This document shows positions 1-47,163 of a stretch of 64,000 nt of DNA, in pieces. Numbering within the stretch: position 1 is the stretch's first letter; each line of letters starts with the position of its first letter. The position numbers and the translations under genes are program-made. The stretch comes from an uncultured Trueperaceae bacterium (lineage in GTDB: Bacteria; Deinococcota; Deinococci; Deinococcales; Trueperaceae): assembly GCA_963727505.1 (NCBI GenBank), contig CAVSGP010000009.1, forward strand, positions 352,001 through 416,000. The letters run 5' to 3'. The notes below the pieces were generated by a model. The model searched no databases and was not told where the DNA came from. It saw only the letters and a program-made list of their open reading frames with translations.

Positions 1-388
1 TGATCTCCAGCGCCTGCTCCCCCGAATCCGGCTGACTCACCAACAACTGCTCGATATCCACCCCCAACGCCCGCGCATACGACGGATCCAACGCATGCTC
101 CGCATCCACGAACGCCGCCACACCCCCCACCGCCTGCGCCTGCGCCACCACATGCAACGCCAACGTCGTCTTCCCCCCCGCCTCCGGACCATAGATCTCC
201 ACCACCCGACCCCGAGGCACACCCCCCACCCCCAACGCCACATCCACCGACAACGACCCCGTCGAAATCACACCCGCCGCCAACGACCGCACCTGCTCCT
301 CACCCAACCGCATCACCGCGCCCTTCCCAAACTGGCGCTCGATCTGCGAAATGGCGGTGTCCAGGGCTTTCTTACGCTGCTCGTCCAT
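1..388 (-). CDS. recA: Recombinase RecA, 5' part (runs off the window edge; absent from the ORF track)
   Basis: Manual translation from ATG at 388 gives [29 protein letters not shown]...[39 protein letters not shown]...[39 protein letters not shown] in one open frame; directly downstream of cinA. Confidence 0.97.
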
Positions 389-444
389 CACAGCTCGCTC
401 CACCTCTCCAGATGGCGTGCGGGCGCGCCTGGGCGCGCCCGCCG

Positions 445-1716
445 CTACCTCAGGGCGGACCGGAGAAGGAAGAGGCTGGTGAAGGCGAGCCGCTCGCGGA
501 GCCATGCCCGCCCGAGAGGCGGGAAGGTCAACGTCTTGACGGTCGTGCCGCTTGGTCCGGCGATGGCGATCACCACGCGCGTTGCCGCGCTTTCGTTCCC
601 ATCCGGTCGCAATGCGCTGTCGGTCCCGTCCTGCAGGTGCAAGGCGGGACCGACAGCGATTCCATAGTCGACATCAAACAGCGCACGGACGCTTGCCGCC
701 AACGCCGCAACCACTTCCGCGGCCGCGGCGGGAAGCCTTGCCAACAGGTCACTGGCTACTCCGAACGTTGCCATGCTATCCGCGTTCCATGCTATCACGG
801 CGCCTGCGAGCGCCTCCTCGACGCCCGAGACGCCGCTCAACACGTCGGAGAGGGCGCCTCCGCTGGCGCACTCGGCCACGGCCAAGCGGGCGCCCGAGCC
901 CCGCAGGCGTTCGATCACGAGGTCGGGGAGCTCGTCGTCGTCGAAGCCCCACACGCTGTCAGCGACGCGGTCGAGGACCGCCTGCTCAGCGGCCGACGCC
1001 TGACGGCGGGCATCTTCGTCGTCGGTGCCCTTCGCTGCCACACGGATGTGGACGCCGTCGCGCTTGGCGTACGTGGCCACGCTGGGGTTGGCGCCGAGGG
1101 TGAGCTCGCCCAGGGCCTCGGCCACGTCGGACTCGCCCGTTCCGTGAGTCTTGATGGTGCGGCGGTACAGGGCGCTGTCCGCGAAGTTCAAGCGCGGCAC
1201 GGCTTGGGTCTCCCACATGCGGCGCATCTCGCGAGGCGGGCCGGGGAGCGTCACCACGGTGCGTTCGTTGTCGTTGCGTCGCAACCTCACCAGCCAGCCG
1301 GGCGCCGTGCCGATGGGATTGGCGAGCGCCTGTGCCGACGGGATGAGCATGGCCTGGCGCAGGTTTCGCTCCGGCATGGGACGCCGCCGGGCGGCGAAGC
1401 GCTGGCGCAGCCAGCGCTCGAGCTCCGGATCGAGTGTCATCGGCTCCCCGACGGCCAGGGCGATCGCGTCGCGCGTGAGGTCGTCGTCGGTGGGTCCCAG
1501 GCCGCCCGTCAGAACGACCAGGTCGCTGCGCTCCAGCGCACGGTCGAGGGCGGCGCGAAGGCGCTCCAGATTGTCGCCCAGGCGTTGCGTCCAGTAGACG
1601 TCGACTCCGTGCAGTGCGAGACTCCTCGCGAGCTCGGCACTGTTGGTGTCGTCGATCTCGCCAAGCAGCAGTTCGGTGCCCACGGCGAGCACTTCGGCGG
1701 TGCGGAGGACGGACAT
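445..1716 (-). CDS. cinA: Competence/damage-inducible protein CinA (COG1058 domain plus a PncC-like C-terminal domain)
   Basis: [47 protein letters not shown] motifs; upstream of recA; start placed at MSVLRTAE. Confidence 0.93.
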
Positions 1717-1747
1717 GGCGGACGATACCAGGGGTCCGCGGAAAGTA

Positions 1748-1766
1748 AGACTGCTGTCAGCATTCT
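1748..1766. promoter_or_regulatory. Imperfect palindrome, candidate repressor operator of cinA-recA
   Basis: AGACTGCTG-T-CAGCATTCT, 8 of 9 arm positions match; lies just upstream of a TATCGT -10-like hexamer (1722-1727, minus strand). Confidence 0.45.
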
Positions 1767-2095
1767 GTTGTAGAATTTCCTTGGTTCCGCTCCCCCAGCG
1801 GGGCCAGTAGAGGGATTCGTCCCTCCACCATCTCCTCTCTTTGACCCTGCGCCCCCCACGCAGGGTCATCCCTTTTCTCGGACGACATCGTATCGGAGGG
1901 CCCAGGCTGCGTCGGGGCTGCAACGGGCCGCGTCCGGTGCGGTGCAGCGCTTCGTGAGGGTGCTTCCGGGCGCACGTAGGCCGTTGCCCGGACCGTCTGG
2001 GCGACCGCTGCCGGGCACACACAGCGATCGGGAGGGCCGGTGCTAGCATGACCCATGAACGCGCTGGGAAGCTCGATGCAGAGCCGGAGGAACGG

Positions 2096-3541
2096 ATGAG
2101 GCCCACCACCCTCGGGGAGCTTCGCGCCACCGCGTGGTCCGCTACGGCGGGCCGCAGCGTCAAGGCGGAGCTTCGTGACAACCTGATGCGGAAGCTGCGC
2201 GATCGCGAGGCGATCTTCCCGGGCATCCGCGGGTACGACGACTCGGTCATCCCGCAGATCGTCAACGCCATCCTCAGCCGTCACAACTTCATCTTGCTCG
2301 GTCTGCGGGGGCAGGCCAAGACGCGCATCCTGCGCCAACTGACGGACCTCCTGGACGACGAGATCCCCGTGATCGAGGATTCTGAGCTGCACGACGATCC
2401 CTTCGCGCCGGTCAGCGTGGAGGGCCGTGAGATCGTCGAGCGTTGCGGCGACGCCACCCCGATCGCATGGTTGCCGCGCGAGACCCGCTACGTCGAGAAG
2501 CTCGCCACGCCTGACGTCACCGTGGCCGACATCGTCGGCGACATCGACCCCATCAAGGCCGCGAAGCTGGGCACGCGGCTCGGCGACGAGAGAAGCGTGC
2601 ATTACGGCTTGCTGCCCCGCGCCAACCGCGGCGTGTTCGCGATGAACGAGTTGCCCGACCTTTCGGGCAAGGTTCAGGTTGCGCTGTTCAACGTCATGCA
2701 GGAGGGGGACGTGCAGATCAAGGGGCACCCGATCCGCCTTCCGCTCGACATCATGCTGGTGTTCAGCGCCAACCCCGAGGACTACACGGCACGTGGCAAG
2801 ATCATCACGCCCCTCAAGGACCGCATCGGTTCCGAGATCCGCACCCACTACCCGCACACGGTCGAGGAGGGCATGGCGATCACCCGTCAGGAGGCGTGGG
2901 TGGAGCGGGGAAGCGAGCTCTGCCTGCCCGGCTTCGTGTCGGAGATGATCGAGGAAGTCGCGTTCCAGGCGCGTGACGACTCCCGCGTCGACAAGCATTC
3001 GGGCGTGTCACAGCGCCTGCCGATCAGCCTCATGGAGGCGGTGGTGAGCAACGCCGAGCGCCGTGCGCTGGAGCTCGGTGAGAGCTCCGCCTACGTGCGC
3101 GCGTCCGACCTGTATGCGGGTCTCTCGGCTGTCACGGGCAAGCTCGAGCTCGAATACGAGGGCGAGCTCAAGGGGGGCGAAGCGGTGGCGCGTGACATCG
3201 TGCGCCGCGCCGTCGGGCAGGTCTTCGCTCGGCGCGCCGGTCACCTCGAGACGAGCGAAGTGGTCGAATACTTCGACACCGACAACACCCTGCGGCTGCC
3301 GGACAACGTCGGCACGGCCGATCTGGTGCAGGTGTTCGAGGCCGTCCCCGGTCTGCTCGACGCGGCACGTGAGCTCACCGAGGGGACGTCCGCGGCGGAG
3401 CTCGCGGTCGCGGCCGAGTTCGTGTTGGAGGGGCTGTACGCGCGCAAGCTGGTCGCCCGGAGCGAGGAGCGTGGGTTCACCGGCGTGCAACCCGATTCCG
3501 CGGAGGTGGCTCAGGGCGGCCCCCGCAGGCGGTGGAACTGA
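2096..3541 (+). CDS. AAA+ ATPase, Mg-chelatase ChlI/MoxR-like family
   Basis: Walker A GLRGQAKT, Walker B-like [25 protein letters not shown] before MRPTTLGEL. Confidence 0.85.
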
Positions 3542-45583: not shown

Positions 45584-45641
45584 GGTGCGCGGTCGTCGCG
45601 GTCGCGCCGCCCGAGAGGGCGCGCCCGGTTTCGGGCGATTT

Positions 45642-45717
45642 GCGGGAGTAGCTCAGTTGGTAGAGCGTCAGCTTCCCAAGCTGAATGTCGCGGGTTCGAA
45701 TCCCGTCTCCCGCTCCA
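45642..45717 (+). tRNA. tRNA-Gly(CCC)
   Basis: GCGGGAG/CTCCCGC stem; TCAGC-TTCCCAA-GCTGA anticodon arm; CCA. Confidence 0.96.
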
Positions 45718-45791
45718 AGCACGGTCCCGCGTGCAGGCACGCCGCACGCGTCGGCACGCCGGGACCGGGCGATCGACGGGGTCGAAGGCGG

Positions 45792-45866
45792 GCTCGTGTA
45801 GCTCAGTGGTAGAGCACTCCCTTGGTAAGGGAGAGGTCGACGGTTCAATCCCGTCCACGAGCTCCA
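45792..45866 (+). tRNA. tRNA-Thr(GGT)
   Basis: GCTCGTG/CACGAGC stem; CTCCC-TTGGTAA-GGGAG arm; CCA. Confidence 0.97.
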
Positions 45867-45944
45867 AAGCGCGACCCCGAAGTCGAGTCGAGTCGCGCCT
45901 GCGGTGAGCAGGCCGGCTCGTTTCGGCTGGGAAAGGATAGAGCC

Positions 45945-47163
45945 ATGGCTAAGGGTGTGTTTGAGCGTACGAAGCCGCATGTGAATGTGGGGACGATTGG
46001 GCATGTGGATCATGGGAAGACGACGTTGACGGCTGCGATTACGTTTGCGGCTGCGGCGGCGGATCCGAGTGTGGAGATTCAGGATTACGATCAGATTGAT
46101 AAGGCGCCGGAGGAGAAGGCGCGGGGGATTACGATTAATACGGCGCATGTGGAGTATCAGACGGTTGCGCGGCATTATTCGCATGTGGATTGTCCGGGGC
46201 ATGCGGATTATGTGAAGAACATGATTACGGGTGCTGCGCAGATGGATGGTGCGGTGTTGGTGGTGTCGGCTGCGGATGGGCCGATGCCGCAGACGCGTGA
46301 GCATATTTTGTTGGCGCGTCAGGTGGGGGTGCCGTCGATTGTGGTGTTTTTGAACAAGGTGGATATGGTGGATGATGAGGAGTTGTTGGAGTTGGTGGAG
46401 ATGGAGGTGCGGGAGCTTTTGTCTTCGTATGAGTTTCCGGGGGATGAGATTCCGGTGGTGTCGGGGTCTGCGTTGAGGGCGTTGGAGGCGTTGCATGGGA
46501 ATCCGAATATGCAGCGTGGTGAGGATGGGTGGGTGGATAAGATTTGGGAGTTGTTGGATGCGGTGGATTCGTATGTTCCGACGCCGGTTCGGGATACGGA
46601 GAAGCCGTTTTTGATGCCGGTGGAGGATGTGTTTACGATTACGGGTCGTGGGACGGTGGCTACGGGTCGTATTGAGCGTGGTGGGGTGAAGACGGGGGAT
46701 GAGGTTGAGATTGTTGGGTCTTGGTGATACGCGGAAGACGGTGGTCACTGGGGTGGAGATGCATCGGAAGACGTTGTCGTCGGGGATGGCTGGGGATAAT
46801 GTGGGGGTTTTGTTGCGGGGTGTGGGGCGTGAGGAGATTGAGCGGGGTCAGGTGTTGGCGAAGCCTGGTTCGATTACGCCGCATACGGTGTTTCGGGGGT
46901 CGGTGTATGTGTTGAAGAAGGAGGAGGGGGGGCGGCATTCGGCGTTTTTTTCTGGGTATCGGCCGCAGTTTTACTTTCGGACGACGGATGTGACGGGGGT
47001 GGTGTCGTTGCCGGAGGGTGTGGAGATGGTGATGCCTGGGGATAATGTGGAGCTTGCGGTGGAGTTGATTAAGCCGATTGCGATGGAGGAGGGGTTGCGG
47101 TTTGCGATTCGTGAGGGGGGTCGGACGGTCGGTGCGGGTGTCGTGACGGCCGTGACGAAGTAG
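45945..47163 (+). CDS. tuf: Elongation factor Tu, interrupted by a +1 frameshift at about 46716-46718
   Basis: [42 protein letters not shown]...[16 protein letters not shown]; removing one G from GTTGGGTCTT restores [11 protein letters not shown] and 405 aa. Confidence 0.96.

Follow-up and report, generated by a model that had tools for sequence, protein, structure and literature searches.

Gene-specific recoding of silent sites on one strand of tuf, recA and sqdB in an uncultured Trueperaceae bacterium

The DNA analysed here (the window) is a stretch of 64,000 nucleotides from an uncultured Trueperaceae bacterium, positions 352001-416000 of contig CAVSGP010000009.1 (C9) in assembly GCA_963727505.1 (G000; 3.26 Mb, 15 contigs, about 70% G+C). 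Three of its ordinary housekeeping genes, recA, sqdB and tuf, the last encoding EF-Tu, are recoded at their silent sites on one strand. The coding strand of tuf is cleared of C and A at these sites, and that of sqdB is cleared of G and T, the mirror image of tuf and recA. This gene-specific recoding is real, inherited and so far unexplained. An earlier note made from the letters of the window had described it, and its four manual counts were reproduced exactly: G or T ends 98 of the first 100 codons of tuf and 102 of the 106 codons from 24 to 129 of recA, where A ends none; C or A ends 89 of the 100 codons from 9 to 108 of sqdB, where T ends none; and C ends 22 of the first 50 codons of rplK.

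Recoded genes in the window

Over the whole tuf gene, third positions hold 0% A, 2% C, 66% G and 32% T. The four-fold sites carry G at 191 positions, T at 48 and C at about 5; ACG is counted 29 times to a single ACT, CCG 18, GCG 24 and GTG 44 times, and the T-ending four-fold codons are GGT (16), CGT (9) and GCT (7). Leucine is written TTG in 23 of 26 cases and CTT in three, with no CTG at all, the genome averages being CTG 0.48, CTC 0.38 and TTG 0.07. Two-fold and isoleucine codons end in T (ATT 19, ATC 0; GAT 24, GAC 0; CAT 12, CAC 0; TTT 12, TTC 0), and the genome-wide shares of TTT, ATT and TTG within their families are 2%, 2% and 7%. The island begins 8 nt past the ATG and stops 18 nt short of the stop codon, and G+T in the non-coding flanks is 0.53 in the 5' untranslated region (UTR) and 0.56 in the 3' flank. 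Amino-acid replacements in EF-Tu follow the same direction: between G000 and the related genome G012, 32 lead towards G/T-richer codons and 6 away, and against four other relatives the counts are 25:7, 36:13, 31:14 and 34:13, the commonest replacements relative to five unskewed orthologues being I>V, D>E, N>D and K>R. Because it reaches the first position of leucine codons and biases amino-acid replacements, the bias works at the level of bases and not on codons as such. The tRNA-Gly(CCC) gene located before tuf reads GGG, which is the main glycine codon of tuf (27 of 43); the E. coli tRNA at the corresponding place is Gly(UCC).

The skew in recA is limited to approximately codons 20 to 302 of 346, a segment of 850 bp (C9:351483-352332) referred to here as the core, in which third positions hold 0% A, 10% C, 77% G and 14% T and four-fold sites of the window copy carry G at 153 and T at 17. 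Both ends of the gene, codons 1-19 (window 332-388) and about 303-346, are normal. Divergence at four-fold sites is 0.079-0.104 in the core, 0.24-0.43 in the tails and 0.27-0.46 in flanking genes. The low synonymous divergence of the core was considered as proof of selection and rejected, since sites limited to G and T allow only G<->T changes; these make up 10 of the 12 core differences, and their rate (10/152) is similar to that of flanking genes. A second recA copy (C2:79570-80721) sits downstream of a 2-oxoacid dehydrogenase E1-beta-like ORF and not of cinA, with a paralogue of sqdX (C2:74526-75387; 68% nucleotide identity) about 4 kb away. Pfam identifies genes for uridine kinase, CTP synthase, guanylate kinase and cytidylate kinase in the interval that separates recA from sqdB (window 10203-14632 and 26972-27685); the presence of nucleotide-metabolism genes there is probably a coincidence.

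In sqdB, the 404 codons end in A 46, C 308, G 46 and T 4 times (11, 76, 11 and 1%). CTC outnumbers CTG by 40 to 2, GAA outnumbers GAG by 18 to 6 and CAA outnumbers CAG by 14 to 8, ACC and CCC are found 38 and 20 times, and all ten serine codons counted are AGC. The codon sets of tuf and recA on one side and sqdB on the other are nearly disjoint in the four-fold boxes. The sqdB island extends from about codon 14 to the ATG of sqdX, with its edge at 35170, and the sense strand of the spacer between the two genes is C-rich and G-poor, yet incompletely cleared. When changes were polarised with three outgroups (268 polarisable codons), 16 G>C changes, all at four-fold sites, and 13 G>A changes, all at two-fold sites, were recovered, along with C>A 4, C>G 1 and A>C 1. 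In a related genome, sqdB was matched as two overlapping pieces in different frames (G003:C3:836467-837584; L045/L047), either a frameshift or a further consensus error inside the skewed gene.

The immediate neighbours of the three genes had been called normal, and their third positions are indeed unremarkable, with C/G fractions of 0.46/0.36 in cinA, 0.56/0.35 in sqdX and 0.48/0.41 in nusG. Coordinates are collected in Table 1.

Table 1. Features of the window that bear on the recoded genes
Feature	Window position	Strand	Basis or remark
recA copy 1, codons 1-129	1..388	-	Translation, counts; gene extends left to C9:351348
recA island	1-332		Gene runs past window start
cinA-like, directly upstream of recA, unskewed control	445..2268	-	Pfam MoCF_biosynth, CinA_KH, CinA
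sqdX-like glycosyltransferase downstream of sqdB, unskewed	34025..35170	-	Pfam Glyco_trans_1_4, Glyco_transf_4
sqdB island	35170-36400		
sqdB-sqdX spacer	35171..35227	-	A 8, C 31, G 16, T 2 of 57
sqdB, NAD-dependent epimerase family (UDP-sulfoquinovose synthase by name only)	35228..36442	-	Pfam Epimerase; single copy
tRNA-Thr(UGU), Tyr(GUA), Gly(CCC), Thr(GGU) cluster upstream of tuf	45395..45866	+	ARAGORN
tuf copy 1 (EF-Tu)	45945..47163	+	Pfam GTP_EFTU, D2, D3 on two halves
tuf island	45953-47145		
nusG, rplK downstream of tuf, unskewed controls	47680..48802	+	Pfam NusG, KOW; third positions

Genome-wide background and sequence support

The fraction of G+T at third codon positions (GT3) has a genome mean of 0.458 with a standard deviation (sd) of 0.056 over 2462 genes found by a crude ORF heuristic. 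This gene caller replaced sqdB and the window copy of tuf by antisense ORFs, and the figures for these genes use explicit coordinates. GT3 is 0.98 in tuf, 0.91 in the recA core and 0.12 in sqdB, which places them at z of about +9, +8 and -6, and outside the islands it spans 0.21-0.72. A scan of the whole genome for maximal segments found eight, of which five islands (two tuf, two recA and sqdB) score 127.5-189.2 and stand clear of all others, the best non-island segment scoring 56.5. With scores so far above the next best, the affected genes form a separate group rather than the extreme of a continuous spread. Within the window, GC skew of 1-kb bins reaches -0.206 at 1-1000, +0.320 at 35001-36000 and +0.498 at 46001-47000, and ranges from -0.048 to +0.177 in the remaining bins. 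The strongest of the weaker outliers lies outside the window, where a cluster encoding a KaiC-like ATPase, a GGDEF/EAL sensor protein and an NHL-repeat protein (C9:11313-18441) has C-rich third positions and GT3 of 0.25-0.29.

Sequence support was judged from Logan contigs of public runs. Eight runs, drawn from two studies, contain half or more of the words sampled from the sqdB stretch. In the contigs of four runs (X1-X4), sqdB shows 0-1 differences and tuf 2-7, a contig of run X1 equals window 35589-37198 with 0 differences, and runs from the second study also carry island sequences. The islands are not an assembly or binning artefact, an outcome the earlier note had kept in view; only one extra base in tuf is unsupported. 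The window tuf is read in two frames owing to this spurious base near 46716-46720. Four contigs of runs X1, X3 and X4 are without one base at 46720 and one X2 contig is without one at 46714, relatives have open tuf genes of 405 codons, and the additional base also stands out in an alignment with them. In G000 the insertion is at an identical position in the two tuf copies, the second of which has another about 30 nt later. Because short-read contigs of four runs lack one base there, the extra bases are assembly consensus errors. Three more differences between the copies fall within the same 35 nt (46716-46752 in the window copy; C9:648629-648670 in the other).

Copy number, gene conversion and other repeats

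The supposition in the earlier note that all three genes are multi-copy segments held for recA and tuf, each present in two copies with converted tracts, and failed for sqdB, for which blastn found no second copy in the assembly. C9:351401-352343 and C2:79671-80613 are 100% identical, a recA tract of 943 bp that takes in the skewed segment of 850 bp; window positions 1-343 fall within it. The tuf pair shares 98.8% identity along 1247 bp. Near-identical paralogue tracts with diverged flanks, as expected of gene conversion, are present for recA and tuf and absent for sqdB. Counting G000, recA is duplicated with a converted core of 943-1014 bp in all five genomes in which two full copies were found (G000, G003, G012, G159 and G107).

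Duplicate tuf genes in Salmonella are reported to undergo concerted evolution by gene conversion (PMC5485169). The tuf and recA pairs described here are alike in sharing near-identical tracts, which stop close to the gene ends or at the point where paralogue sequences part. However, conversion of this kind explains the identity of copies and not the purge of one strand. Four other repeat families in the assembly (3780, 1267, 711 and 554 bp; 94-99.9% identical) are unskewed, with G+T of 0.47-0.51, and G012 carries a 972-bp, 100% identical recA core and two tuf copies, yet its GT3 is 0.49 in recA and 0.43 in tuf. Because sqdB is single-copy and the four repeat families and G012 are unskewed, duplication is neither necessary nor sufficient for the skew. 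We think that gene conversion spreads and homogenises the skewed state without causing it. These results do not support the proposal in the earlier note that repeated exposure of multi-copy segments, or their recopying with fixed polarity, is the cause. The orthologues of the single-copy sqdB in five other genomes of the genus are equally biased, a finding which that note itself had named as speaking against its view. One copy of the 711-bp repeat is in the window (5711-6421; 99.86% identical, inverted, to C5:221088-221798; G+T 0.50), and the ORF that overlaps it (5742-6554) has no Pfam match.

Relatives and Thermus-like tuf genes

The tuf survey covered 18 sequences and then 40 further ones. 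The related genomes are non-independent samples, and genus assignments such as Thermus-like (g13) and Deinococcus-like (g11) are inferred. GT3 of tuf is 0.95-0.99 in the genus of G000 (g1), 0.95-0.97 in the Trueperaceae genera g7, g18 (one of two) and g21, 0.81-0.83 in g6 and g9, and 0.42-0.68 in other sampled Trueperaceae genera. It is 0.71-0.83 in all 10 genomes of Thermus-like g13 and 0.47-0.80 in Meiothermus-sized g16, while Deinococcus-like g11 (0.30-0.43, C-rich) and g12 (0.26-0.37) lie lower. Among the matches listed, 79 tuf genes of unrelated bacteria have GT3 of 0.25-0.75, the only higher value (0.88) being that of a Trueperaceae metagenome-assembled genome. Two unrelated uncultured bacteria (L125 and L137) have tuf GT3 of 0.75 and 0.71, with G 0.42-0.44, T 0.29-0.31 and C 0.15-0.17, and the same tendency in tuf may exist outside Deinococcota.

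A milder bias is found in all 10 of the Thermus-like genomes examined, so the tuf bias is an ancient feature of the lineage rather than a local change. Four-fold sites of Thermus-like tuf genes carry G at 149-171 and C at 18-38, TTG accounts for 10-20 of 27-29 leucine codons, and T ends only 18-34 of 92-97 two-fold pyrimidine codons. In a complete Thermus-like chromosome (G064; 1631 crude genes, GT3 mean 0.459, sd 0.056) the top outliers are the two tuf copies (0.78 and 0.79), lying between a normal fusA (0.44) and rpsJ (0.47). The next outliers are ORFs of a six-copy repeat resembling an insertion sequence (IS), with GT3 of 0.73 (260446-261476, 436281-437322 and 1780566-1781595 on C1), a 400-bp part of which has G+T of 0.72 on one strand. 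EF-Tu of another g13 genome (G025) matches solved EF-Tu chains, which we take to be from Thermus, over its full length at about 890 bits. Papers of 1987 on the tuf sequence of Thermus thermophilus reportedly noted a strong preference for G at third positions. We class the recoding in G000 as an extreme form of this reported usage: it affects the same gene in the same direction, with tuf alone in its operon preferring four-fold G and TTG. In G000, however, the purge is near complete (C 2%), includes two-fold codons, and extends to the recA core and, mirrored, to sqdB. A literature search that did not cover subscription journals found no description of such recoding.

In recA, GT3 is 0.80-0.87 in the genus of G000 (10 of 10 sequences, 8 genomes), 0.85-0.86 in the two copies of g21 and 0.77 in g7 and g10, the skew always being in the core and never in the tails. 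It is absent in g4, g8, g3, g2 and other families (0.32-0.56), including the Thermus-like genomes, where recA is near normal (0.52-0.56). The skewed recA cores hold 20-24 NAT to 10-13 NAC codons and 18 TTC/ATC to 2-3 TTT/ATT codons, and Thermus-like tuf shows the reverse. Both recA copies of G107 are C-rich (GT3 0.30-0.31; four-fold C 148-149, G 42-44) with the same core and tail profile. The direction of the skew differs between genes, and perhaps also between lineages. For sqdB, GT3 is 0.09-0.16 in six genomes of the genus, 0.29-0.30 in two others, 0.21 in g7 and 0.37-0.48 in most other genera, and sqdB is the youngest of the three cases. Its alleles are mosaic between species: that of G006 is 0.94 identical to the unskewed G001 allele in windows 3-4 and 0.95 identical to that of G000 in window 5. 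The gene lies about 10-20 kb from tuf in six relatives, a conserved synteny.

The EF-Tu tree follows taxonomy (support 98/98 for f1 and 99/97 for f3+f4), so the skew has not been passed between families with the gene, and cross-family transfer of a skewed tuf allele was rejected on this ground. Two further genes were surveyed in 31 relatives. The RecBCD/Chi idea was dropped, the RecC family being found in none of the 31 (completeness 67-100%; AddAB was not searched). Rho was discarded as a discriminator, its RNA-binding domain being present in 31 of 31 genomes, skewed and unskewed lineages alike. The Rho loci (for example G000:C4:261611-261826) have frames of 519-837 codons in full-length Trueperaceae hits and 414-470 codons in most other families, which suggests a long N-terminal extension of Rho in Trueperaceae.

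Known processes and rival explanations

Ordinary causes, namely optimal codons, transcription or replication skew, horizontal acquisition and an assembly or binning artefact, are highly improbable as the source of the recoding, even though tuf is always highly expressed, its frameshift was indeed an artefact, and the C-ending usage of sqdB, with GAA and AGC, resembles that of tuf in a Deinococcus-like genome (G027). As to optimal codons, 22 highly expressed proxy genes (ribosomal, RNA-polymerase and EF-G genes; 6564 codons) use genome-average codons, and codon deviations correlate with theirs at 0.08 for tuf, -0.08 for sqdB and 0.04 for the recA core; no trend is shared with ribosomal genes, and the recoding is not translational adaptation. 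Nor do the codons match major tRNAs: 47 tRNA genes were found, almost all single-copy, and tuf prefers the rare-family codons TTG, ATT and TTT. The tRNA gene content was itself rejected as a cause, the set being standard and without a duplication that explains the codon sets. Asymmetry of replication and transcription is well known, as GC or keto skew of leading strands and as G+T excess on non-transcribed strands, and the islands are alike in that G and T are enriched together on one strand, which is the leading strand (judged by GC skew) in four of five. They differ from it in most other respects. Skew is limited to single genes or cores and stops at gene ends inside the operon: around the second tuf copy (GT3 0.91-0.96) fusA and rpsJ are at 0.48 and 0.42, co-transcription being assumed from gene order, and the 5' UTR of tuf is little affected. 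In sqdB the excess of G and T lies on the template strand. GC skew in the islands is 0.3-0.6, about ten times the background of 0.01-0.07 measured per 20 kb along C9, and the sign is opposite in the window copy of recA, the exception to the leading-strand rule, which is a conversion copy of the second. Transversions, moreover, dominate at four-fold sites. The opinion in the earlier note that transcription-coupled bias and optimal codons fail as explanations is borne out by the unskewed operon neighbours and the ribosomal genes, and replichore skew alone is too weak. Horizontal acquisition is contradicted by the taxonomic EF-Tu tree and by orthologues that share the bias in conserved synteny, and an artefact by the contigs of the second study.

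The model of the earlier note was that multi-copy segments are exposed as single-stranded DNA (ssDNA) or recopied with fixed polarity, which purges C and A by mutation, with selection on the protein removing the damage. We regard it as quite unlikely. It draws on the converted tracts of tuf and recA and the position of the recA skew inside such a tract, the converted recA cores in all five genomes with two full copies, the fact that the assembly has only some seven repeat families and that two of the three skewed ones belong to them, the leading-strand polarity in four of five islands with the fifth explained by conversion, and the multi-copy IS-like ORFs that follow tuf among the outliers of G064. 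A G-rich non-template strand, established in other systems as favouring R-loops, would add a possible positive feedback. No canonical G-quadruplex motif was found in any island, despite 30-41 GGG runs per island. The model does not accommodate the single-copy sqdB with its G/T-rich template strand, the unskewed converted copies of G012 and the four other repeat families, or the normal fusA and rpsJ and unpurged UTRs in the tuf operon. Deamination, in addition, predicts transitions, with C>T and A>G dominant, but at four-fold sites the transversion partner has taken the place of the lost base (G>C 16, no G>A in sqdB; G 191 to T 48 in tuf; 153 to 17 in recA), a replacement which keeps the GC content; the polarised substitutions thus speak against purging of the deaminase type. 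Thermus-like tuf genes, too, have gone over to G at four-fold sites but kept C in most two-fold pyrimidine codons, the reverse of the order expected from C>T. Fungal repeat-induced point mutation and the R-loop and deaminase-targeted G-rich switch regions are comparable as repeat-associated or strand-asymmetric base change, as the earlier note suspected, but here the proteins are intact and conserved, the spectrum is not dominated by C>T, one island is single-copy and other repeats are untouched. Strand-polar biased conversion is also improbable. MutS barely recognises C.C mismatches, and if the same strand were always transferred, C.C would escape MutS while G.G was corrected, so that G>C would spread between paralogues or from transforming DNA. 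This would explain the G>C (or C>G) transversions as the main four-fold change, the tie to converted or recombining cores (recA core versus tails, sqdB mosaics), the discrete set of genes with its indifference to the direction of transcription, and a polarity that matches replication in four of five islands. It fails to predict the transitions, GAG>GAA in sqdB and two-fold C>T in tuf, the A.C and G.T mismatches being well repaired; the MutS hierarchy predicts asymmetry of purines and pyrimidines at A/T sites and not of keto and amino bases; and G012 and the other repeats are unskewed while sqdB is without a paralogue. Regulation through codon sets, in which the G/T-ending set of tuf and recA is read or spared under stress and sqdB has the opposite set, giving differential translation, appears equally unlikely. 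Possible agents are isoacceptors charged in starvation, stress-dependent tRNA modification, or a ribosome-dependent mRNA nuclease cutting C/A-ending codons. It suits the limitation of the skew to coding sequence, the almost disjoint sets in four-fold boxes, the presence of every C34 tRNA needed, including the tRNA-Gly(CCC) in the tuf operon, the behaviour of Asp, His, Asn and Tyr codons as a block apart from Phe and Ile codons, and the plausibility of RecA and EF-Tu as recovery proteins. But CTG ends in G and still gives way to TTG (0 to 23), T-ending four-fold codons share G34 tRNAs with the avoided C-ending ones, T replaces C in two-fold codons for which one tRNA reads both endings, the base bias shows in amino-acid replacements as well, and the recA tails are exempt within the ORF.

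A proposed fixation bias towards strands unable to self-pair

The reading to which we lean, tentatively, is a self-reinforcing fixation bias, by selection or by recombination drive, for strands that are unable to pair with themselves. The primary variable is G versus C on the coding strand, one of the two having been lost as far as the protein permits: C in tuf and the recA core, G in sqdB. The genetic code accounts for the A/T part, since two-fold pyrimidine codons that avoid C are left with T and two-fold purine codons that avoid G are left with A. G/T and C/A are two ways of keeping silent positions from mutual G-C pairing, and what results is a strand with little capacity for self-pairing. 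The favoured strand could be mRNA, with less structure and more translation, or structure-free ssDNA in homologous recombination. The bias would act on conserved recombining cores, through paralogue conversion in tuf and recA and through exchange between species in sqdB. The data show the pattern with its edges, inheritance and copy number, together with the substitution spectrum and the predicted weakening of folding; that loss of self-pairing is what is favoured, and which strand matters, RNA or DNA, we infer.

Predicted folding at 37 °C in 100-nt windows, computed on the crude gene set, averages -40.1 kcal per 100 nt in the genome (sd 4.4; 2307 genes). At -19.2 kcal, sqdB is weaker than all 2307 genes, tuf (-29.0 kcal) and the recA core (-28.9 kcal) are both in the weakest 1%, and tuf of G064 is at the 97.8th percentile of predicted weak folding. 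In silico, partial recoding of the G/T type shifts the energy by 0.8 kcal (tuf) and 1.6 kcal (recA) between 0 and 40% native codons, and by 4.0 and 8.3 kcal between 60% and 100%. A folding gain of this convex form could lead to a few all-or-none genes instead of a gradient, leaving ribosomal genes unmoved. In its mRNA form the bias is conceivable, being backed by a reported effect of ORF-wide structure and by measurable selection on tuf codons: ORF-wide mRNA structure units are reported to be predictors of translation efficiency in E. coli (PMC5318159), and selection on tuf codons is measurable (PMC4786093). The E. coli units are alike in being an ORF-limited property in a polycistronic context, and the three genes here are among the least foldable. 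They are unlike in that the recA tails and the start of sqdB are exempt here and ribosomal genes are unaffected. To our knowledge, there is no case of ORF-wide structure set by stripping silent sites almost completely of one base. The exempt recA tails, the sqdB mosaics and the two duplicated families among the three point to the ssDNA form. RecA prefers GT-rich DNA.

Several observations weigh against a bias towards strands unable to self-pair, or against one of its forms. The recA tails diverge three to four times faster than the core at four-fold sites, though they share its ORF and mRNA, and their exemption fits recombination better than selection on mRNA. The first 14 or so codons of sqdB are normal, though the start of an ORF matters most for translation, and ribosomal-protein genes, which an expression-linked pressure should shift partly, are unshifted. 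RNA rich in G and U still forms wobble pairs and is a poorer solution than C/A (-29 versus -19 kcal), which leaves the G/T route of tuf and recA unexplained. Pairing does not explain the avoidance of A in tuf, and there is no explanation for the presence of sqdB as one of only three affected genes. Because weak folding comes automatically with strong skew, folding alone does not decide between cause and consequence. Non-coding DNA beside the islands, in regions that are short, is little affected, which argues against a simple tract-wide process on DNA. Finally, the whole-nucleotide GC skew of the C-rich recA of G107 is only about -0.12.

Taken by itself, the form in which a recombination-linked, self-reinforcing drive recodes recombining cores is doubtful, though possible. 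In conversion between paralogues or in natural transformation, transfer would favour strands that do not fold or that form mismatches invisible to MutS, and silent sites would run away to a state purged of one base, with arbitrary polarity. If true, this would be a molecular drive like GC-biased gene conversion or the drive behind uptake sequences, but acting on strand asymmetry, and would offer a new sequence record of past recombination.

Significance

Silent sites in essential genes are usually ascribed to mutation bias or to translational selection scaled by expression, neither of which fits here. Codons with a genome-wide share of 2% in their family rise to 95% in one gene, ribosomal genes are unmoved, and another gene has the opposite polarity. 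A force of some kind, selection on the foldability of single strands or a recombination drive, must be powerful enough to bring silent changes to fixation by the hundred in a few genes and to maintain them in several genera. Thermus-like genomes carry the milder form and Thermus is genetically tractable and naturally competent, so that the question is testable by synonymous recoding. Both tuf and recA are common phylogenetic and metagenomic markers, and their recoding distorts nucleotide trees, composition-based binning and probe design in this phylum.

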